Part shown: positions 1,535-28,353 of the stretch, one piece after another
Numbering within the stretch: the stretch's first letter is position 1
Layout: every line of letters starts with the position of its first letter
Virus record (IMG/VR): IMGVR_UViG_3300009095_000052
Location: 1-29,873 of that record
DNA from: a virus
Taxonomy: Duplodnaviria; Caudoviricetes
DNA length: 29,873 nucleotides
Direction: 5' to 3' (one strand)
Translations under genes and position numbers: made by a program
Notes under the pieces: generated by a model
Told to the model about the DNA's origin: nothing
The model's database searches: none
What the model saw: the letters and a program-made list of their open reading frames with translations, nothing else

Positions 1535-1562
1535 AAAATACCCGGCGAGCGGGTGTCGTCAA
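1535..1562 (-). promoter_or_regulatory. sigma70/SigA-like promoter for 545..1489, variant of the repeated ACACCCG-type promoter
   Basis: minus strand TTGACG-acacccgctcgccggg-TATTTT; the -35 overlaps the stop codon of the HNH gene. Confidence 0.55.
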
Positions 1563-2017
1563 GCCCAATCAGGATTCACCTGGTCCCAGCGCCATCCGTC
1601 CGGGATCATCTGCCGCGCCACGGCCTTGGACACTCCCAGCGCCTTCGCAACCTTCGAGGGCGTGGCCCCGGCCCAGTACAGCCGGGCGGCCTGCTCGGCG
1701 TCCTCCGGCGTGATGCGGGCTGCGGAGCGGTCGATCAGGTCGCGCCCCATGAAGCCGCGATGGCGTCCACGGTCGATCATGTCCTGGACGTTCTGGCTCG
1801 GCGTGCCGGTGATCAGGTGCGCAGGGTTGATGCACGGCGGGTTGTCGCACTGATGGCGGACCACATGCCCGGCGGGGATCGGGCCGACCCAGCGCTCGTA
1901 GGCGATCCGGTGTGCGCCGATGCCCTTGATGGTGCCGTAGGTCAGGTTGCCGTAGACCCAGCAACCCTTGGCGCTGACCGTCCAGCCGTGTTCGTCCATG
2001 AGGCGGTGGAGTTCCAT
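1559..2017 (-). CDS. HNH endonuclease with C-terminal HTH
   Basis: AHRIAYE...VVRHQCDNPPCINPAHLITGTPSQNVQDM HNH signature; C-terminal PSKVAKALGVSKAVAR HTH; ATG 7 nt after a TATCGT -10 (leaderless). Confidence 0.85.
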   Translation of the reverse strand: MELHRLMDEHGWTVSAKGCWVYGNLTYGTIKGIGAHRIAYERWVGPIPAGHVVRHQCDNPPCINPAHLITGTPSQNVQDMIDRGRHRGFMGRDLIDRSAARITPEDAEQAARLYWAGATPSKVAKALGVSKAVARQMIPDGWRWDQVNPDWA

Positions 2018-2024
2018 GAATCGA

Positions 2025-2052
2025 ACGATAACTCTTGACAAGCGGGTATCAA
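2025..2052 (-). promoter_or_regulatory. leaderless SigA-like promoter for the HNH gene
   Basis: TTGATA-N16-TATCGT-N7-ATG on the minus strand. Confidence 0.55.
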
Positions 2053-6195: not shown

Positions 6196-6951
6196 ATGGC
6201 CTCGAAGACCTCTGCCGCCCCGTCCGAGCTGGCGCTGTTCCACCGCAACCCCAAGCGCGGTGACGTGCCCGCCATCGAGCGCAGCCTGCTCGCGCACGAC
6301 CAGTACCGGCCCATCGTCGTCAACAAGGGCACCCACACCGGCCGACCGATGGAAGTGCTGGCGGGCAACCACACGCTCATCGCCATCCGCAACCTCGCCG
6401 AGCGCTATCCCGACGACGCGCGCTGGCACAAGGTCGCGATCCACGTCATCGACGTGGACGACGACCGGGCCACCCGCATCGTGCTCGCCGACAACCGGAC
6501 CGCCGAGCTGGGCGGGATGGACGAAGAGACGCTGGCCGAGCTGCTGACCAACCTGGGCGGAGAGCTGGACGGCACCGGCTACTCCAGCGAAGACCTGGAC
6601 GACCTCATTGCCCTCGGGCAGGAGGGCCTGGAGCACATCGAGTTCGACGCCAAGAAGAAGGGCCAGCGCGAGGACGGCCTGGTCGATGGCGACACCATCG
6701 AGGATCGCCAGGACGTGTACGCCGACCAGGCCACCCGGCTGATCATCCTCAATCTTCCGATCCCCCAGTTCATCTGGGCACAGGGCATCCTCGAACGCTA
6801 CCGCGAGGCCACCGGGGTCGAGTCCAACGCCGAGGCGCTGCTCACCTTCCTGAGCGAGTGGTCGAACGAGACGCCTCCGGCCGCCGACGCCGAGCTGGAG
6901 CCCGTGCCCGGCACCGAGGCCGAGGCGGTCAACCCCTTCGCCCAGGCGTAG
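6196..6951 (+). CDS. ParB-like nuclease domain protein
   Basis: HRNPKRGDV..I..SL...DQYRPIVV...VLAGNHTL...LADNRTAELG, ParB N-terminal signature. Confidence 0.85.
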   Translation: MASKTSAAPSELALFHRNPKRGDVPAIERSLLAHDQYRPIVVNKGTHTGRPMEVLAGNHTLIAIRNLAERYPDDARWHKVAIHVIDVDDDRATRIVLADNRTAELGGMDEETLAELLTNLGGELDGTGYSSEDLDDLIALGQEGLEHIEFDAKKKGQREDGLVDGDTIEDRQDVYADQATRLIILNLPIPQFIWAQGILERYREATGVESNAEALLTFLSEWSNETPPAADAELEPVPGTEAEAVNPFAQA

Positions 6952-6953
6952 CC

Positions 6954-7814
6954 GTGAGCACGCCGCTCGAACGCCTGTACTTGCCCCGAGTGCTGACCCC
7001 GCAGCAGGCCAGCCACCTCGTCGGCGAGATGGTGACCGAGCGCGAGCCCTCTCTGCTCGCGCCCGGCACCGTGGTCCATGATGCCGAGACCGGCGCGCCC
7101 GTGCTGGCGTATCTGCCACTGGACGAGCCAGCCGCCCTGCGCCGCGCGGCGTTGAGCGTGGACTTCGACAAGTCCACCCTCGGCCGCCAGAAGAACTACC
7201 GTTCGCGCTCGCGCACGTTCGGGTTCTCACCACGGCGGCCCGTCGTCCTGCGGGAGGGCTGCACGCTCGCCGCGCTCGCGCACGAGCAGCCCGACGTGGA
7301 GCGCGTGCTGGAGTCCTACGCCGACCGGTTCAGCGCGGCGCTGGAGACCATCGACCCCGACATCGTGTCCAAGGACCAGGCCACCCTCGGTGACGTGCTG
7401 CCGGACTGGCGCATGGGCGAGGCGAAATTGTGGACCTCCGGCGTCGTCAACGACACCGCACAACTTCCGTACCACCGCGACGGCTTCAACTTCGCCACCT
7501 GGTCGGCGATGCCCGTGGTCCGGCGCGGTGTGCGCGGCGGGCACCTGCACCTGCCCGAGTACGACGTGACCGTGCCGTGCATGGACTCCACGGTGACCTA
7601 CTTCCCCGGCTACACCTACGTCCACGGCGTCACGCCGATGACCAAGGCGCGGGCCGACGGCTACCGGATCAGCATCGTCTACTACGCCCTCAAGGGCATG
7701 AAGAACTGCCGCGAGGCGGCAGAGGAAACGCGCTACGCGCGGACCCGGCGAACCGAACGCGAGGCCGACATGGCCCGCCGTCTGGCCGCCGGAGACAAGG
7801 AGATTCCCCGGTGA
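6954..7814 (+). CDS. TET/JBP-family 2-oxoglutarate/Fe(II) dioxygenase
   Basis: HxD (YHRDGFN), distal His (VHGVTP) and 2OG-binding RISIVYY motif. Confidence 0.85.
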   Translation: MSTPLERLYLPRVLTPQQASHLVGEMVTEREPSLLAPGTVVHDAETGAPVLAYLPLDEPAALRRAALSVDFDKSTLGRQKNYRSRSRTFGFSPRRPVVLREGCTLAALAHEQPDVERVLESYADRFSAALETIDPDIVSKDQATLGDVLPDWRMGEAKLWTSGVVNDTAQLPYHRDGFNFATWSAMPVVRRGVRGGHLHLPEYDVTVPCMDSTVTYFPGYTYVHGVTPMTKARADGYRISIVYYALKGMKNCREAAEETRYARTRRTEREADMARRLAAGDKEIPR

Positions 7815-8695
7815 CCCTGCGCCGCGACCGTAGGCAGCGACTCGACCACTACGCCGAGTGGCACCACCTCCAGGTCGCGACTGGGGACATCGACCCGGCC
7901 TACCCCGTGCTGGCTCACATCGCCGGGCAGTTCGGCCGGACCGACGGCGCGTGGCTGGTGCTGCGGCACGTCGCCTACTACCACCTCGGCTCAGCGCTGC
8001 GCTCCTACGCCGAGAGCCAGGGACCGCGCCTGCCGTCGATGCTGTTGCGCCTGCCGACCGGCACCGAGCGCCGGGCGCACCGCGACGTACGCCAGTTCGC
8101 CGCGCACTGGGACGACCTCGTCCGCCAGGTCGCCGAGCACGGCGGCCCGCGCGAGTTCCTGACCCCGACGCAGACCGGGCGCGCCGGATGGGACGAGCTG
8201 ATCGAGCGGCTGTGCGGCGTCCGGGGCAACGGCCGGTGGGCCGCGTACAAGACCGCTGAGCTGGCACAGAAGGTGCTCGGCGTGCCGATCATCGCCTCCG
8301 ACGCCGGGCACGCCTACAGCACCGGCCCGCGCAAGGGCCTGGCCCTGCTCCAGGACATCCCCGGTGACAACTCGCCGGAATCCATCGCGATCCTGGACAA
8401 CATGACCGACCAGCTCGCGCGCTGGCTGCCCGAGCGCGATATCGCGCAGGTGGAGACCAGCCTGTGCGACTTCCACTCGGCGTTCCGGGGTCGGTACTAC
8501 ATCGGCAAGGACATTGACGAACAGCTCCACCACCTGCTGGCCGTCCCGTCGGACTTCACTCCGCTGGCGCTGCGAGCGCGCCAGCTCGCCTTCCCGAATC
8601 AGTACCTCGGCGAGGAGCACGGCTGGACCGAGGTGGACAAGGAGCGCTGCAAGGTCTACCGCGACACCGGCCGCATCATCGTCCGGGAGCGGTGA
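7811..8695 (+). CDS. alpha-glutamyl/putrescinyl-thymine pyrophosphorylase (amino acid:DNA transferase)-like protein
   Basis: GDIDPAY N-terminal motif, HhH-like GNGRWAAYKTAE, STGPRKGL, VETSLCDF and YYIGKDIDE; context between dioxygenase and kinase. Confidence 0.75.
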   Translation: MTLRRDRRQRLDHYAEWHHLQVATGDIDPAYPVLAHIAGQFGRTDGAWLVLRHVAYYHLGSALRSYAESQGPRLPSMLLRLPTGTERRAHRDVRQFAAHWDDLVRQVAEHGGPREFLTPTQTGRAGWDELIERLCGVRGNGRWAAYKTAELAQKVLGVPIIASDAGHAYSTGPRKGLALLQDIPGDNSPESIAILDNMTDQLARWLPERDIAQVETSLCDFHSAFRGRYYIGKDIDEQLHHLLAVPSDFTPLALRARQLAFPNQYLGEEHGWTEVDKERCKVYRDTGRIIVRER

Positions 8696-8790
8696 TGCGT
8701 GCGGCGGTCAGCGACCTGCTCGACCGCGTGATGCTGCGGGCAGCGCAATGGATATGGGACTGGACCCAGAGGAGGACACATGGCCGATGA
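8695..8790 (+). CDS. 31-aa Trp-rich micro-ORF (MRAAVSDLLDRVMLRAAQWIWDWTQRRTHGR)
   Basis: TGATG coupling to the upstream stop; fills the only gap in the operon and overlaps the kinase start; absent from the ORF track. Confidence 0.4.
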   Translation: MRAAVSDLLDRVMLRAAQWIWDWTQRRTHGR

Positions 8791-9316
8791 CCTGATGATC
8801 TACATGATCGGCGAGCCGGGATCGGGCAAGTCCACGCTTATGGCCCGGCTGACCGAACCGTGGTCGCGGCACCCCGCCGACGGCCAGCCCCGGCGCGACC
8901 TGCTGCTCGAAGGCGAGACCGTGCGCGGTGTGGAGCTGGGCAAGCGGCGCGCGGGCGGCTTCTCCGGCACCGACGCGCTCGGCTCGTCGGTGATCACCGT
9001 GGCCGAGCGCTGGCTGTACCAGCACGAAGCCCCCATCGTCCTCGGCGAAGGCGCGCGGCTCGGCAATGCGCGCTTCCTCAAGGCGGGCGTCGACGCCGGA
9101 TATCGCGTGACGCTGGTCCTGCTGGAGCACGGTGACTCAGCCCGCTGGCGCGCCGCGCGCTCCGAAGCACTCGGCCGGACGCAGAACGCTGCATGGGTGA
9201 AGGGCCGTGCCACGGCCAGCCGTCGGCTTGCCGACCACCCGCCCGCTGGCGTCGGCGTCCTGCGCGGGCACCCCGACAACCTCTACCCCATCCTCTCCGA
9301 AAGGCTCGGCGCATGA
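8780..9316 (+). CDS. P-loop nucleotide kinase (5-hydroxymethyluracil DNA kinase-like)
   Basis: Walker A GEPGSGKST; FSGTDALG and GEGARL motifs; GAGGAGG RBS. Confidence 0.8.
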   Translation: MADDLMIYMIGEPGSGKSTLMARLTEPWSRHPADGQPRRDLLLEGETVRGVELGKRRAGGFSGTDALGSSVITVAERWLYQHEAPIVLGEGARLGNARFLKAGVDAGYRVTLVLLEHGDSARWRAARSEALGRTQNAAWVKGRATASRRLADHPPAGVGVLRGHPDNLYPILSERLGA

Positions 9317-9921
9317 GCATTCTCCGCAAGCTGGACTACGACGAGCTGGACCGCTACGCCACGCTCGCCAAGGCCGAAGTCGGCCAGATGAAGGCGGCTG
9401 GCGTGCCCGCCGACCAGCTCAAGCCCGAGCGCGAGGTGCTGTCCGAGTTCAGCCTCGCCAAGCGCTGGTCGCTGGAGGCGTACCTCCTGCGCGAGTCCAC
9501 GGCCATCATCGTCGGCTTCAACAAGCGGGGCACCGACCCGTTCGGCCGGTACGCCAACGTCTACGTCGTCCACACCCGGCTCGCCGAACGCGGCAAGGGG
9601 CAGGCCGTGGAGGCGTACCGCGCGGTGATGATGCTGGCTGCGGTCCGGGGCGTGAAACGTATCGTGACGACAGCGGGCAGCTACGGCGGGTGGCGGACCC
9701 ACCGCGCCCTCGGCTTGCCCGCGTGGGGCCTCAACGACAAGGGCCAGATCATCTCCGACGGACCGGTCCACCCGCAGCTGGATGTGCCCGGCCGTCCACC
9801 ACGCGCCACCCAGGATCAGCCGATGACCCCGTACGAGCAGGTGCAGGTGCTCATCGACCCGAACGGTCCGTACCGGGTCAATCCCGCAGACCTCGAAGGC
9901 GATTGGCGGAAGCTCGCATGA
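9313..9921 (+). CDS. GNAT-family acetyltransferase-like protein
   Basis: acetyl-CoA motif A-like VHTRLAERGKGQAVEAY; ATGA overlap. Confidence 0.65.
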   Translation: MSILRKLDYDELDRYATLAKAEVGQMKAAGVPADQLKPEREVLSEFSLAKRWSLEAYLLRESTAIIVGFNKRGTDPFGRYANVYVVHTRLAERGKGQAVEAYRAVMMLAAVRGVKRIVTTAGSYGGWRTHRALGLPAWGLNDKGQIISDGPVHPQLDVPGRPPRATQDQPMTPYEQVQVLIDPNGPYRVNPADLEGDWRKLA

Positions 9922-10700
9922 ACATCCTCATCGTCGGCGCGGGCATCTGCGGCTCGGCGCTGACCATCGCGGCGGTGCGCGCCGGGCACACGGTCACCCT
10001 CGTCAACGACGATCAGCCGATGGATTCGCTCAGCGCGGCGGCCGTCCTGCGCCGCGCCTGGCACGCCGGGTCCGAGCGCGCGCTGTTCAACCGGACCCTG
10101 GACCTGTACGCCGAGTGGGACATCCAGCTGCTCACCGGAGCCGTGGTCACCAGCTACCGTCGCAGCGAGCCCAAGTACGACCCGGACTGGCGGATGATCG
10201 ACCCGGCCGCGCCGTTGGTCACGGCGTCGGTGTCCGGTCACGCCGTCGGCGTCGGCGAAGGCGTGGTGCGCGTCGGCGAGCAGACCTTCCACCCCGACGC
10301 CACCCTGTGGGCCACTGGCCGTTACGGCGGTGAGGTCACCGGCGTGACCTACGGCGTGACCTGGGTCCACGACAACCCCGACGCCGCGCTGATCGACCCG
10401 GCGCACATGCGCGTGCACCACATCGCCCCGTACAAGTCGGTCATGGCCGGTGAGGTCGGCGGCCGGGCGCGCTTCGGCTCCAGCTCGGCCACCAGCAGTG
10501 ACAAGGCGCGGCAGCAGGCCAAGGACATGTACGCGCTCGGTGTCCGCGAGGGCATCATCCGCGACGACTCCGGTTGGTACGCCGTGTCCGGGCAGCGGGT
10601 CAAGACCGCGCCGAACGCCACCCTCGGCGGGATGCACCGGACCGGCTACGCGCTGGCTCCTGCACTGGCCGAGAGGATCATCGCCCGGATAGGGAGGTGA
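9918..10700 (+). CDS. FAD-dependent oxidoreductase (DAO/glycine oxidase-like)
   Basis: N-terminal ILIVGAGICG dinucleotide-binding motif; C-terminal GGMHRTGYALAPALA. Confidence 0.8.
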   Translation: MNILIVGAGICGSALTIAAVRAGHTVTLVNDDQPMDSLSAAAVLRRAWHAGSERALFNRTLDLYAEWDIQLLTGAVVTSYRRSEPKYDPDWRMIDPAAPLVTASVSGHAVGVGEGVVRVGEQTFHPDATLWATGRYGGEVTGVTYGVTWVHDNPDAALIDPAHMRVHHIAPYKSVMAGEVGGRARFGSSSATSSDKARQQAKDMYALGVREGIIRDDSGWYAVSGQRVKTAPNATLGGMHRTGYALAPALAERIIARIGR

Positions 10701-13498: not shown

Positions 13499-13568
13499 GA
13501 GCGGGTCCGTCCCGCTCACTGTAACTACAATAACCGCTCGCCGGGTGTTGTATCAACACCCGGCGAGC
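13499..13568 (-). promoter_or_regulatory. cassette promoter plus 5' leader hairpin
   Basis: TTGATA-N18-TATTGT; 15-bp IR 13536-13568; leader hairpin GAGCGGG-ACGGA-CCCGCTC at 13499-13517. Confidence 0.85.
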
Positions 13569-21602: not shown

Positions 21603-23372
21603 GTGGACGAGGAACTGTTCAAGCTCCCGGAGGAGCTGCCGACCGAGCTGGACGCTCTCGGCGATCTGCGGGCCGAGGCCCAGGCAGCATTCGACAAGAT
21701 CAAGAGCAAGGTCGAGGCCGGTGACGACCTGACCGACGAGGAACTGGACCACCTCAAGTACGTGGTCGATTCCATCACTCAGATCGACACCGCCACCGCC
21801 GCTGCGGAGGAAGCCAAGGAAGCTCGCAACCAGAGCATCGCCGACCTGATCAGGGCGGGCGATGGCGAGGACGACGAGTCGGACAAGGACGGCGACACCG
21901 ACGACGACGAGGAAGGCTCGGAGGAGAACTCCGAGGCTGCCGCCGATGTCATCGCCGAGGCCGAGAAGGCGACCGAGGAAGCGGCCAAGGAAGGCGTCGC
22001 TGCCTCCGGCGCTCGCAAGCCGGGCAAGCAGCTCGCGCGGACCAGCTTCAAAGGCCTCGCCAAGGGCAAGACCCCGGCCGTGCCGAAGTCGGAAATCGGC
22101 TGGCAGATGGACCCGCAGGCGCACGGCTACAAGCCGGGTCTGGTGTCCTTCTCCGACCTGGCCGCCGCTGTCGAGTCCGTACGCCCCGGCGCACGTGCCC
22201 GGTCGAACCGTCCCGCCACCGGTGGCTACGCGCAGCTGTCGCTCGCGCGCCTCCAGCGTGACGTGAAGGAGGTCAGCGACTCGCACGAGCTGGTCGCGGC
22301 CATCGAGGCGGCCACCGACGAGACCAAGCTGCCGGGCGGAAGCCTGACGGCGGCCGGTGGCTGGTGTGCCCCGTCGGAGACGCTGTACGACTTCTGTGAG
22401 GTGCCCTCGGCGACCGACCTCATCTCGCTGCCGGAAATCACCATCCGGCGCGGCGGTGTGCGCTGGCCCATCGAGCCGGACCTCTCGGAAATCTTCGAGT
22501 CGTTCCAGTTCTTCTTCACCGAGCCTCAGCTGGAAGCCGTTGACGGCGAAGGCAATCCGACCGCCATCAAGGAATGCGTCGAGATTCCCTGCCCCGACGA
22601 GTTCGAGGAGCTGCGGCTCAACGTCGTGGGCTACTGCGTCGAGGCGGGCATCCTCCAGACGCAGGGCTGGCCGGAGCTGATCGAGTGGTTCATGCGCTCG
22701 CTGGTCGCGGAGCACCTGCGCGCCATCTCGCGCCGGACCATCCTCGATATGGTCGCTGGTTCCACCGCGCTGACCATCCCGGCCGACACCCAGATCGCGG
22801 CGGGCAGTTCGCTGCTCAACTCGCTGTCGCTGATGGCCGTCAACCTGCGCCTGAACAAGGGCCTGGGTCGCACCGCCACCATCGAGGGCGTCGCCCCGAG
22901 CTGGCTGCACGAGCTGGTCCGCGCCGATCTGGCGAACCAGCAGGGTGTCGAGACCAAGAACGTCACCGACTCCCAGATCACCGCATGGTTCTCGGCGCGC
23001 AACATCGCGTTGCAGTTCGTCGGCGACTGGCAGACCCGCGAGGCGGGCCAGCCGGGCAACCTGGCGACCGTCCAGTGGCCGGACACCGTGCAGGTGCTGC
23101 TCTACCCGGCCGGTACCTGGTTCCGCGCGCTGAGCAACGTCATCGAACTGGGCGTGCAGTACCCGCGCGAACTCCTCCAGGTGAACCGGTACACCCGGTT
23201 CTTCACTGAGGATGCCATCGCCATCGGCAAGCGCTGCAACGAGTCGCTGGTCGTCACCGTGCCGGTCTGCCCGAACGGTGCCTACGGCGCGCAGGACGCC
23301 ATCACCTGCGGCGCGGGCAACGGCGAGGGTGAGGGTGAAGGTGAAGGTGAAGGCGAGGGTGAGGGCGAGTAA
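21603..23372 (+). CDS. major capsid (hexamer) protein with N-terminal scaffold-like domain and C-terminal (GE)8 tail
   Basis: acidic coiled-coil N-terminus, LTAAGGWCAPSETLYD start of the capsid domain, synteny. Confidence 0.88.
   Translation: MDEELFKLPEELPTELDALGDLRAEAQAAFDKIKSKVEAGDDLTDEELDHLKYVVDSITQIDTATAAAEEAKEARNQSIADLIRAGDGEDDESDKDGDTDDDEEGSEENSEAAADVIAEAEKATEEAAKEGVAASGARKPGKQLARTSFKGLAKGKTPAVPKSEIGWQMDPQAHGYKPGLVSFSDLAAAVESVRPGARARSNRPATGGYAQLSLARLQRDVKEVSDSHELVAAIEAATDETKLPGGSLTAAGGWCAPSETLYDFCEVPSATDLISLPEITIRRGGVRWPIEPDLSEIFESFQFFFTEPQLEAVDGEGNPTAIKECVEIPCPDEFEELRLNVVGYCVEAGILQTQGWPELIEWFMRSLVAEHLRAISRRTILDMVAGSTALTIPADTQIAAGSSLLNSLSLMAVNLRLNKGLGRTATIEGVAPSWLHELVRADLANQQGVETKNVTDSQITAWFSARNIALQFVGDWQTREAGQPGNLATVQWPDTVQVLLYPAGTWFRALSNVIELGVQYPRELLQVNRYTRFFTEDAIAIGKRCNESLVVTVPVCPNGAYGAQDAITCGAGNGEGEGEGEGEGEGEGE
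23322..23369 (+). repeat. (Gly-Glu)8 coding repeat
   Basis: 8 x GG(C/T)GA(A/G) directly before TAA. Confidence 0.95.
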
Positions 23373-23507: not shown

Positions 23508-24323
23508 GTGACGAACCCGATGCCGGTCGTAGAGTTCGACGCACCTGCCGTCAATCCGGCTGGTCTCGGGCTGTACGCGGCGGCCACCGTCTTCGACACC
23601 GCACGGCCCAGCCGAATCCTGGCTGGCGTCAACGTTCGGCCCTATAACTGCTCAGAGGCGTTCGGCACCTGGCCGACTGACCCCTGTGCCGACCCGGACC
23701 CCGAGCTGCGCAAGTTCGGTGTGCGCCCGGAGGCCGGCGAGCCGTTCGACCCGTTGCAGCCGTGGGCCTACGACGAGTGCGGGCCGGGCGTGACCGACGA
23801 GGAGTCCCGCGCGCGGGCCGCTCAGACGCTGCGGCTCCAGGAGCCGTTGCTGGTGGAGTCCGCCTTCGCCGCGCGACTGCTCGCCGACGCGGGCGCTGTC
23901 CCTGGCGGCATCGGCACCGCGACCGACCTCGCCGATGCCATCGGCCAGCTGGAAGTCGCGCTCGGCGAGACCGGCTACCAGGGTTACATCCACGCTTCGC
24001 GGTACTGGGCTCCCCAGGCCAGCCAGTACCGCTGGGACAACCAGACCGGGGCGGTGCTCAAGACGCCGTTGCGGCACTCCTGGGTGTTCGGAGGCGGCTA
24101 CGCCTCGGTGCTCGGCAACACGCTGGTCGCCACCGGTCCGGTGTTCGTCTGGCGCGACGAGCTGACCGTCAACACCACCTTCGATTACCGGGTGAACATC
24201 AAGGCGTCGGTCGCTGAGCGGACCGTCGTCGTCGGATACGAATGCATCATCGCGGCAGTCACCATCGGCGGAGGAGCCGGTGAGGGCGAAGGCGAGGGTG
24301 AAGGCGAAGGAGAAGGCGAGTAA
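23508..24323 (+). CDS. major capsid pentamer protein (second capsid protein) with C-terminal (GE)7 tail
   Basis: GAGGAG RBS; position after the hexamer protein as in cluster-B phages; GLYAAA, LRLQEPLLVE, TPLRHSWVFGGGY, AERTVVVGYEC. Confidence 0.75.
   Translation: MTNPMPVVEFDAPAVNPAGLGLYAAATVFDTARPSRILAGVNVRPYNCSEAFGTWPTDPCADPDPELRKFGVRPEAGEPFDPLQPWAYDECGPGVTDEESRARAAQTLRLQEPLLVESAFAARLLADAGAVPGGIGTATDLADAIGQLEVALGETGYQGYIHASRYWAPQASQYRWDNQTGAVLKTPLRHSWVFGGGYASVLGNTLVATGPVFVWRDELTVNTTFDYRVNIKASVAERTVVVGYECIIAAVTIGGGAGEGEGEGEGEGEGE
24279..24320 (+). repeat. (Gly-Glu)7 coding repeat
   Basis: 7 x GGNGAR directly before TAA. Confidence 0.95.
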
Positions 24324-25988: not shown

Positions 25989-26522
25989 TCACTCAAAGGG
26001 AGTGGCAGGGTGCTTGTCGTCGCTGGACTTGAGGCCCGCGTACTGCGCGGCGGCTCGGTCGCGCGCACAGGTCTTGCACTTACGCCCGGCGCGGTTCTCG
26101 TAGCAGTTGTCCGGGGTGAGTTCATGCCCCCGCTTGCAGTGGGTCTTCTGGGAGTTCCAGTGCCCACCGTTACGAACCATGTCCGCCACGTTGTGCGCTT
26201 GCGTTCCCCATTCCAGGTTCTCTACGCAGTTGTTGCTTCGGTCATCGTTCAGATGACGGGCTACCTGCCCTACCGGGCGCGGCCCGACGAAGGTTTCCAG
26301 GACCAGTTGATGAACCTTCCGTCGGCGGCGTGCTCCGGTGCGGAGGCGGACTTCCAGGTATCGGGAATGCGCTGGACCACTCCAGGTTTGAGTGACCGGC
26401 TGCGCCGGTTCTACAAGTCTTCCGTGAGGGTCCAGCAGGTCCGACCTGCGTACTTCTCCACGGTTGGAAATCTCGTATCCGGGGTGTCCGGGTACGGGCT
26501 CCCAGATATCGGTGTCGGTCAT
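25989..26522 (-). CDS. NUMOD4-HNH homing endonuclease
   Basis: WEPVPGHPGYEISNRGEVR (NUMOD4); VHQLVLETFVGPRP..ARHLNDDRSNNCVENLEWGT..N (HNH); KTHCKRGH...CKTC zinc motif; antisense to the late operon. Confidence 0.9.
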   Translation of the reverse strand: MTDTDIWEPVPGHPGYEISNRGEVRRSDLLDPHGRLVEPAQPVTQTWSGPAHSRYLEVRLRTGARRRRKVHQLVLETFVGPRPVGQVARHLNDDRSNNCVENLEWGTQAHNVADMVRNGGHWNSQKTHCKRGHELTPDNCYENRAGRKCKTCARDRAAAQYAGLKSSDDKHPATPFE

Positions 26523-26557: not shown

Positions 26558-27406
26558 ATGGCCGTTTTCCCTGTGGTTAAGGGCACCGTGCTGAGGGCCA
26601 CAAAGGTCAACAACTGTGGTCTGCCGGTCGCCGGACCGGCGAACCGGGTGGTCACCCCCGGCTGGGTGTCGCTGACCATCTCTCCTGAGTTCCAGGAGGC
26701 CGAGGAGCTGGAGCAGCGCAACGCCGAGGGTCGCGTCTGCGTCCAGGACCGCACCCCGCCCGAGCGCAAGTACTACAACCTGGAGCTGACGCTCTGCCAG
26801 GTCAACACCTGCCTCATCTCGCTGTTCAACAGCTGGGTGCAGGAGCTGGACTGGGAGGGCAACGCGGTCGGTTTCCGCGACCAGCGCGAGGTCGAGGCCG
26901 ACTTCGGTGTGGCTCTGGAGCTGTGGGCCGGTGGCCGTGCAGGCACCGACTGCCCGCTGCCCGAGGACGATTCAATCTTCGCCTCGGCGGGCACCGGTCG
27001 TAACTACGGCTACGTGCTCACCTTCGGCACCGAGTTCGTGCTCGGCGACATCGAGATCGCGGCGTCCGTCGCGACCTTCGTGCTCACCGGCATCTCGTTC
27101 CCCGCGCCGCAGTGGGGCCGTGGTCTCTACAACGTCGTGGCAATCGACAGCTCCAACACCCCCGGCCGTCTGCTCACCCCGCTCGGCCAGGACCAGCAGC
27201 TGGTCATCCAGCGGACCCCGGTCCCGCCCCCGGACCCGACCCCTGGCGAGGAGTGCTGCCCGGTGGACATCGCCGGGGTGTTCACCGCGCCGAACTACTA
27301 CTTCGGTGGCCCGGCCGGTGAACCCGCAGCCGATATCGCGCCGGATCAGCCCGCCTGCGAGGGTGAAGGCGAGGGTGAAGGCGAGGGTGAGGGCGAAGGC
27401 GAGTAA
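26558..27406 (+). CDS. major tail (tube) protein with C-terminal E(GE)7 tail
   Basis: AAAGGA RBS; LRATKVNNCG.P, EQRNAEGRVC and WGRG.YNVV motifs of cluster-B-like tail tube proteins. Confidence 0.85.
   Translation: MAVFPVVKGTVLRATKVNNCGLPVAGPANRVVTPGWVSLTISPEFQEAEELEQRNAEGRVCVQDRTPPERKYYNLELTLCQVNTCLISLFNSWVQELDWEGNAVGFRDQREVEADFGVALELWAGGRAGTDCPLPEDDSIFASAGTGRNYGYVLTFGTEFVLGDIEIAASVATFVLTGISFPAPQWGRGLYNVVAIDSSNTPGRLLTPLGQDQQLVIQRTPVPPPDPTPGEECCPVDIAGVFTAPNYYFGGPAGEPAADIAPDQPACEGEGEGEGEGEGEGE
27359..27403 (+). repeat. Glu-(Gly-Glu)7 coding repeat
   Basis: GAG plus 7 x GG(C/T)GA(A/G) directly before TAA. Confidence 0.95.
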
Positions 27407-28038
27407 TGCCGACGTTCCCGACCGGTCCGAACACGCTGCTGTTGCTGTCGGGCGGACTCGATTCCGCCTACTGCCTCTGGAAGCATGTTCGGACCGGTCA
27501 GCCCATCCGCACGCACCATGTCGTTCTCGCCGACCACGAGGGACGACAGGAGGTCGAACGGGTCGCTACACAGCGGGTGCTCGCCTGGGTCCACGCCAAG
27601 GTGCCCGGCTCCCGCGCGCTCATCCAGCACACGGAGAGCCGCGTGAGCTTCGGGGACTTGCGCTGGATTCCGAAGAACTACCACCTGTGGGCGTACTGGA
27701 CAGGCGTCATCATGGCGGCCCCGTCCGGCCGGGCCATCACCGACATCATCCTGCCCCGGCACAGCGACGCTTTCGCTGGCGGTCCCACCGGCCCGTCGGC
27801 GCGGCGCAGCGACACGGCCTACAAGGGCCACGTGAAGCTCATTGCCGGGCGCGAACCGGTGCTCCGGTACCCAATGGCCCATCTCACCAAGGCGCAGGTC
27901 ATCGCCGACATGCCGCAGGGTCTGATCGACGCGAGCTGGTGGTGCCGTACCCCGCGCAACGGGACGCGGTGCCACAAGTGCGCGACCTGCAAGCTGGTCG
28001 ATCCCGCTCTCGCCGCGCGGGCGCGGAAGGTAGGCTGA
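27406..28038 (+). CDS. QueC-like PP-loop ATP pyrophosphatase (adenine nucleotide alpha-hydrolase superfamily)
   Basis: LLLSGGLDS PP-loop; P..HLTKAQV; C-x8-C-x2-C-x2-C zinc site (CRTPRNGTRCHKCATC); TAATG-coupled to the major tail gene. Confidence 0.8.
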   Translation: MPTFPTGPNTLLLLSGGLDSAYCLWKHVRTGQPIRTHHVVLADHEGRQEVERVATQRVLAWVHAKVPGSRALIQHTESRVSFGDLRWIPKNYHLWAYWTGVIMAAPSGRAITDIILPRHSDAFAGGPTGPSARRSDTAYKGHVKLIAGREPVLRYPMAHLTKAQVIADMPQGLIDASWWCRTPRNGTRCHKCATCKLVDPALAARARKVG

Positions 28039-28071: not shown

Positions 28072-28102
28072 AACGGCCCGGACGCTCAGCGTCCGGGCCG
28101 TT
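28072..28102. terminator. probable bidirectional terminator
   Basis: 14-bp stem AACGGCCCGGACGC-tca-GCGTCCGGGCCGTT between convergent genes. Confidence 0.7.
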
Positions 28103-28291: not shown

Positions 28292-28353
28292 GAGCGGGTC
28301 TGTCCCGCTCACTGAAACTACAATAACCGTTCGGCGGGTGTTGTGTCAACACC
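28292..28353 (-). promoter_or_regulatory. cassette promoter plus leader hairpin
   Basis: TTGACA-caacacccgccgaacggt-TATTGT; hairpin GAGCGGG-ACAGA-CCCGCTC; IR GGTGTTG-tgt-CAACACC. Confidence 0.85.

Follow-up and report, generated by a model that had tools for sequence, protein, structure and literature searches.

Close relatives of a QueC-fold enzyme encoded in this phage DNA are found almost exclusively in phages with capsid or tail-tube proteins that end in Gly-Glu tails, and we consider it probable that the enzyme is a writer that adenylates the carboxylates of these tails and likely amidates or conjugates them. Throughout, "the window" means the whole 29,873-nucleotide stretch of DNA that was analyzed.

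Enzyme gene and Gly-Glu tails of the window

The features of the window that bear on this pairing are as follows.

21603..23372, + strand: major capsid hexamer protein (phrog_777)
23322..23369, + strand: (GE)8 C-terminal tail of the hexamer protein, candidate tag
23508..24323, + strand: capsid pentamer protein (phrog_779), named from the syntenic Glass/Pipefish gene
24279..24320, + strand: (GE)7 C-terminal tail of the pentamer protein, candidate tag
26558..27406, + strand: major tail (tube) protein (phrog_792)
27359..27403, + strand: E(GE)7 C-terminal tail of the tail tube, candidate tag
27406..28038, + strand: QueC-fold PP-loop/Zn enzyme, candidate writer (210 aa, phrog_1550)
27448..27465, + strand: SGGLDS pyrophosphate-binding loop (residues 15-20)
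27943..27990, + strand: zinc site C180-x8-C189-x2-C192-x2-C195, with R181 at the QueC Tyr position
28072..28102, + strand: terminator-like hairpin (14 bp plus T tail) closing the tail-tube/enzyme unit

The open reading frame at 27406-28038 agrees with the original prediction of a PP-loop gene with an SGGLDS loop and a Cys4 motif that starts inside TAATG, where its ATG overlaps the tail-tube stop codon, and the terminator predicted after it corresponds to the hairpin with a T tail at 28072-28102. One hairpin of that kind was found in the window against 1.5 expected from shuffles, so the count alone is no evidence; the evidence is its position directly 3' of the enzyme gene. The neighbors of the enzyme are the tail tube and a head-tail adaptor, with no CD-NTase alongside, and S-G-G-x-D-S is present in all 28 enzyme locus rows of our alignment.

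Runs of (GE)4 followed by a stop codon were matched three times in the window and never in 100 shuffles, and the GE repeats are written with mixed synonymous codons. The structural genes form a module of cluster-B type, with a tube family shared with 851 GenBank records, and the closest relative of the tube is that of Nocardia phage NTR1 (77%). At the corresponding junctions NTR1, Glass, and Pipefish carry extensions of about 90 residues, which may be surface decoration domains; this reading suggests that the tails of the window proteins face outward. Two HNH endonuclease genes are also present, at 25989-26522 (-), just before the tail-tube gene, and at 1559-2041 (-). Separately, four copies of an 18-base motif (0.22 expected) lie at 13502, 13913, 14913, and 28295, immediately upstream of small genes on the reverse strand, and a sigma-70-like promoter adjoins the one at 28295; the motif is likely a shared early promoter or operator.

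Enzyme and tails occur together across unrelated phages

Among 50,697 GenBank records, 25 matched the enzyme, comprising 11 strong matches (Muddy group, 8; DS6A, 2; PIS136, 1) and 14 weak matches to jumbo phages. The Muddy capsid ends in GGGSGEGEGESE and its tube in GGGGEGEGEGE, with the enzyme gene next, and the PIS136 capsid ends in GEGEGEGGEGGEG. DS6A bears (GE)6-7 on capsid and tube and has its enzyme about 8 kb off, beside the terminase genes; adjacency is therefore not the cause of the coupling. Metagenomic loci supplied more carriers; a DNA pattern for the zinc motif gave 29 loci, of which 25 held the enzyme family.

We scored a tail as present when the last 12 residues held at least 3 G, at least 2 E/D, and at least 2 G-E/G-D steps, a rule fixed after the tails had been seen and with a base rate of 3 in 1972 ORFs. 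Of the 17 phages of the enzyme clade in which the end of the capsid or tube could be seen, 16 had at least one Gly/acid tail; the tailed carriers are Muddy, FF47 (near-identical to Muddy), DS6A, PIS136, and metagenomic phages. In one of these (L086) the tailed protein is an unnamed head-module gene product encoded just upstream, instead of the capsid. Left out of this count were L008 (capsid end off the contig; a small ORF ends GEGEGE), L054 (1 kb), L105 (with its first base already within the gene), L073 (tailed, with the contig ending 71 bases on), and duplicates. Tailed capsids span at least four families (phrog_777, 10, 247, and 29), as do tailed tubes (phrog_792, 117, 885, and 3884).

Distinct ends picked by scaffold, each with at least 1 kb downstream, had tail and enzyme in 7 cases, a tail only in 0, the enzyme only in 1, and neither in 98. 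By family, the L087 capsid (80 loci, 53 distinct scorable ends) gave 1 with both and 52 with neither, the Muddy tube (80 loci, 28 distinct ends) gave 2 and 26, and the window tube (25 ends) gave 4 and 20, plus the single enzyme-only case, the PIS136 tube, from a phage whose capsid is tailed. Because the positives include the query loci and kin are not independent, the telling figure is that none of the 98 scaffold relatives without a nearby enzyme has a tail, even at 76-87% identity; one of the 98 (L233) is the L089 phage discussed below, whose enzyme lies further off. NoShow (78%) and JacoRen57 (76% to the Muddy tube) have no tails and no gene between tube and chaperone, NTR1 carries unrelated extensions where the window proteins have tails, and capsids 86-87% identical to that of L087 end bare. 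Profiling of the clade against the tails, with 16 of 17 tailed and 0 of 98 tailed without a nearby enzyme, thus supports the coupling of candidate tag and writer that had been proposed from the window alone. In enzyme-less relatives (L062-L068, L059, and L061), capsid and tube often end at the same junction in short Pro/Thr runs (VTP, PTP, PEPEP), which are perhaps the tags of another writer.

Several results stand against a strict pairing. The complete provirus L089 carries a clade enzyme, yet its tube ends LGGGG and its capsid is untailed; this carrier, without Glu in its end, has an enzyme with a net charge of -6 and Leu at position 90. In IMG/VR, 39 stretches match (GE)4-stop and 19 loci have an in-frame tail of (GE)≥3, of which 3 are DS6A or Muddy; the other 16, including 6 giant-virus bins, show no enzyme within the locus, and the four of these 16 that were searched whole gave no enzyme match, so GE ends do not need an enzyme of the window type. 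From three of the four whole-searched phages, the tailed proteins are not recognized capsids or tubes. Likewise, (GE)4-5 C-termini with no enzyme detected were seen in L011, L033, L040, L046, and L025/L044, on proteins unrecognized as capsid or tube, and no ATP-grasp or PP-loop gene was present among 64 of the 115 listed ORFs of tail-only phages (those of G001 and G003). Conversely, 11 more distant rows of the enzyme family have no such tail nearby. Two distant members, L096 and L101, are found close to packaging genes within clusters of glycosyltransferase, methyltransferase, Stealth, and epimerase genes, which may form a further pathway for decorating virions or DNA. The tails themselves are not uniform in repeat or last residue.

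A QueC-superfamily enzyme that has lost several QueC motifs

The window enzyme scores 29.7 bits against the Pfam QueC family PF06508, above the gathering cut-off of 22, and 15.6 bits against NCBIfam TIGR00364, far below the cut-off of 150.3. Its AlphaFold2 model (pLDDT, 94.5) matches Cap9 (PDB 9nto_B; Z 17.1, rmsd 2.7, 171 aligned) and Bacillus subtilis QueC (PDB 3bl5; Z 16.2, rmsd 3.6) as tied best folds, with Z no higher than 13 for other PP-loop enzymes. Judged by the Pfam score and this model, the enzyme has a Rossmann-like PP-loop fold with a Cys4 Zn site and belongs to the QueC superfamily.

The QueC signature is defined in PMC13329287, in the accessible part of which Y35, R99, Y131, and Y189 are given as essential. 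The YxQxHxxE motif (Y35) is lost, with DHEGRQEVE in place of the DYGQRHVVE of phage Glass QueC and Glu alone kept; at the VPxRN position (R99) IPKN replaces the VPNRN of Glass, K90-N91 aligning with R-N across a gap in the sequence alignment; the YPDC motif (Y131) is absent, the region reading RHSDAF; and at Y189 the window enzyme has W-C-R against S-C-Y in Glass. In the profile comparison with Glass QueC the last 60 columns alone aligned. The ten clusters described in the part of PMC13329287 available to us do not include that of the window enzyme, whose family comprises 137 clusters at E ≤ 1e-30 and 1021 at 1e-10, is labeled QueC-like in databases, and has copies in Mycolicibacterium; the nearest Atlas clusters are 76-100% viral. 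Plasmids searched for the family gave no match, and the lone match from a scan of genome contigs covered 16 residues and was rejected as spurious. Tandem-domain fusions or tandem paralogues were seen in P0025, P0062, P0063, P0070, P0076, P0077, P0123, P0133, L091, and L100, hinting at two-step chemistry in some lineages.

In a tree of the 28 locus rows, the 16 tail-linked rows and L089 form one clade (86/82), its inner 14 rows being supported at 98/93. A single enzyme lineage has thus passed between unrelated virion modules, and these modules acquired tails together with it. Clade rows differ from the others at position 90 (K/R in 12 of 17 versus 0 of 11 outside), H119 (14 of 17 versus 1 of 11), W95 (14 of 17 versus 0 of 11), and D121 (14 of 17 versus 4 of 11), and all 17 have R181, where QueC has Tyr. 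The enzyme cores of tail-linked rows have net charges of 0 to +16 and those of outside rows -5 to +8, the +8 row being L109, the tube of which ends in an acidic run. The jumbo-phage homologues of PA1C and RSL2 (23-27%) fall outside the clade and have no GE tail within 8 kb.

Proposed mechanism and comparison with known systems

PP-loop enzymes use ATP to turn a carboxylate into an acyl-adenylate, which an amine then attacks. Because its close kin occur almost only in tailed phages, the window enzyme likely alters the tails using ATP. The carboxylates adenylated by this QueC-fold ATP pyrophosphatase would be the Glu (sometimes Asp) side chains of the tails, presumably exposed on the virion surface and held in a remodeled basic pocket of R47, K90, H119, D121, and R181; an amine would then displace AMP, so that the virion would bear amides or conjugates. 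For the nucleophile, ammonia would be the simplest candidate, with Gln as the product, and alternatives include a polyamine, an amino sugar, lysine, or a backbone amide; no second enzyme is conserved beside the gene, which in our view favors ammonia or a common host amine. A RimK-like ATP-grasp gene adjoins the enzyme in PIS136 and a YheC/D ATP-grasp is fused to it in P0061, isolated cases that may point to carboxylate-amine ligation. Candidate benefits are charge masking, adsorption, and evasion of host sensing. More tentatively, at a little short of an even chance, the QueC-fold ligase and the Gly-Glu tag may form a portable virion-coating system, borne by unrelated phages, that turns carboxylates into amides or conjugates of a host amine; thousands of surface carboxylates would then be converted per particle.

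Two well-known reactions offer working analogies from other enzyme families with other targets: lasso-peptide cyclases adenylate the side chain of a peptide Glu/Asp by PP-loop chemistry, and tubulin/RimK glutamylation forms amides, at the expense of ATP, on acidic C-terminal tails. Mycobacteriophage-encoded glycosyltransferases, reportedly described by Freeman et al. in 2023, are said to act on hydroxyl acceptors of capsid and tail-tube proteins; there too phage writers would serve capsid and tube alike, but an adenylating ligase with Gly-Glu tails differs from them. Canonical QueC (3bl5; Glass gp3) shares SGGxDS, C-x8-CxxCxxC, a conserved Lys, and the fold (Z 16.2) with the window enzyme, which lacks Y35, Y131 (YPDC), and Y189 and shows no queD/queE/folE context in the window. 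QatC (qatABCD) is likewise a QueC-family, protein-modifying enzyme with a remodeled site, according to the accessible portion of PMC13329287, but it has about 400 aa, a C-x19 Zn variant, and qatA/B/D neighbors, none of which was seen with the window enzyme of 210 aa, with C-x8 and a structural-gene context.

The closest likeness is to Cap9 of type IV CBASS, the best fold match and a minimal PP-loop/Zn unit, which modifies a flexible Gly-rich protein terminus via an acyl-adenylate; in the part of its description available, the acid is CDG, the amine is the Gly-rich protein N-terminus, and Y115, D117, and R86 hold the base (10.1101/2025.04.06.647259). Cap9 keeps YxDC and RN, whereas the window enzyme is without YxDC and is tied to acidic C-terminal tails; the Cap9 motifs Y/FxQ(x)5E, H(x)4YxDC, and CE(x)6CxxCxxC, as given in the accessible part of PMC13329287, are absent from it, and PADLOC returned only a weak QueC match in the window (E 2e-5). 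The loss of the base-stacking motif together with a carboxylate-rich partner suggests that the roles are reversed, with the tail as acyl donor. The analogy with Cap9 drawn in the original prediction thus stands for the chemistry and falls for the substrate, since Cap9 joins CDG to a protein amine.

Alternative explanations for the pairing

The tails could instead be docking handles that recruit a basic enzyme to procapsids or virions, the substrate adenylated being another, such as a target in the infected host or a small acid destined for an amine of the virion. Matching of charge between enzyme and tails suits binding as well as catalysis, and the activated acid of Cap9, in the portion of the report seen, is a small molecule for which the protein gives a Gly-rich amine tail (10.1101/2025.04.06.647259). 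Several homologues bear C-terminal appendages of a head-module type; small ones (SAP-like or GGGWY-type) were seen in P0030, P0032, P0033, P0035, P0038, P0044, P0126, and P0171, that of P0032 being SAP-like, and could serve to anchor the enzyme at the head module. However, hundreds of tail copies on capsid and tube would seem to exceed the needs of docking, and the pocket residues change with the tails, beyond surface charge. The accessible part of a cryo-EM study that includes Muddy also speaks against docking, in that the major capsid protein alone is described as seen in the maps, and makes no mention of the tail (10.1101/2022.09.09.507160); the sequence of PDB 8edu includes the Muddy capsid tail. 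We regard docking as unlikely, though it is the strongest of the alternatives.

Less likely still, and in our judgment improbable, is that the C-terminal alpha-carboxylate on a flexible Gly-rich linker is activated, as by ubiquitin E1, and ligated to an amine, cross-linking or capping virion proteins. The GGGG extension of L089, lacking in its enzyme-less kin L230 and L232, would fit, as would the tails of L004, L005, and PIS136, which end in Gly. The tails vary, however, in repeat (GE, GGEN, GES, GD) and in last residue (E, G, A, V, I, T), so that what is conserved is the internal G-E/G-D steps and not the end, and GE runs are internal in the PIS136 and L091 pentamer genes.

We think it very improbable that enzyme and tails have no functional link and simply travel together on a single mobile DNA segment. 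The enzyme does directly follow the tailed gene in most loci, and a single insertion could bring both, but each genome has its tails on two or three different genes, some of which lie kilobases from the enzyme, those of DS6A are far from it, and the repeat codons are mixed.

The enzyme is most unlikely to be a preQ0 synthase or a CDG ligase for 7-deazaguanine DNA modification or deazaguanylation, a reading favored by the PF06508 score, the QueC/Cap9 fold, the QueC-like database names, the tgt-named gene of a B1 phage in the corresponding slot, and the fact that only the 29,873-base contig of the window phage genome could be searched, and opposed by the TIGR00364 score (15.6 versus 150.3 bits), the missing YxQxH, YPDC, and Y189, the searches for pathway genes described below, and its inability to account for the tail coupling.

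Deazaguanine genes and the DNA-modifying cluster of the window

The original prediction saw no queD, queE, folE, or dpdA/tgt in the window, and tblastn with Glass dpdA, queC, queD, queE, and folE and a B1 tgt-like gene upheld this, finding none in the window or in 16 carrier loci; the same search matched only two control loci. The suggested check for QueD and FolE was run on four complete carrier genomes (DS6A, Muddy, PIS136, and L087), and both families were absent from all four with Glass as a positive control; the TGT family PF01702 gave no match in that same control. The full annotation of Muddy names no deazaguanine pathway gene. A caveat raised earlier, that cluster-B phages can hold deazaguanine genes after the tail gene, is correct for the B1 phage AltPhacts, which has a tgt-named gene in the slot after the tail tube, but does not apply to the window enzyme, for which a role in DNA modification is highly unlikely.

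The window has a DNA-modifying cluster of its own, different in kind from deazaguanine systems. This thymidine-hypermodification-type cluster, at 6858-10700 (+) before the terminase, encodes a Tet/JBP oxygenase, PF18724 (amino acid:DNA transferase, ADDT), PF18751 (P-loop kinase 3), a 201-aa ORF, and an FAD oxidoreductase. The label "queuine tRNA-ribosyltransferase" (PHROG 6059) for 6948-7811 was rejected, as this gene is the Tet/JBP oxygenase; the same mislabel recurs in several RefSeq phages. Matches to the window Tet gene were found in 100 GenBank records, and the 25 listed include no phage from the GenBank set of enzyme carriers.

Implications for phage virions

A literature search, with most subscription papers beyond its reach, brought up no publication that deals with the tails or with the function of the enzyme. 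There is a real chance that this candidate QueC-family protein modifier represents a new kind of virion modification. The orphan "QueC-like" gene of Muddy, FF47, and DS6A is thereby given a candidate function, and an overlooked chemical modification is predicted on the most abundant surface proteins of these phages, which could affect adsorption, stability, and antibody recognition; Muddy serves in phage therapy, as noted in the part of PMC12582341 available. If the proposal is true, the QueC scaffold would gain a third use, one in which a protein is the acyl donor, over a hundred uncharacterized clusters would be wrongly labeled as queuosine enzymes, and the tag-and-writer pair would be usable for protein labeling. 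Muddy would, in that case, have carried unnoticed a form of virion modification that is new and distinct from glycosylation.
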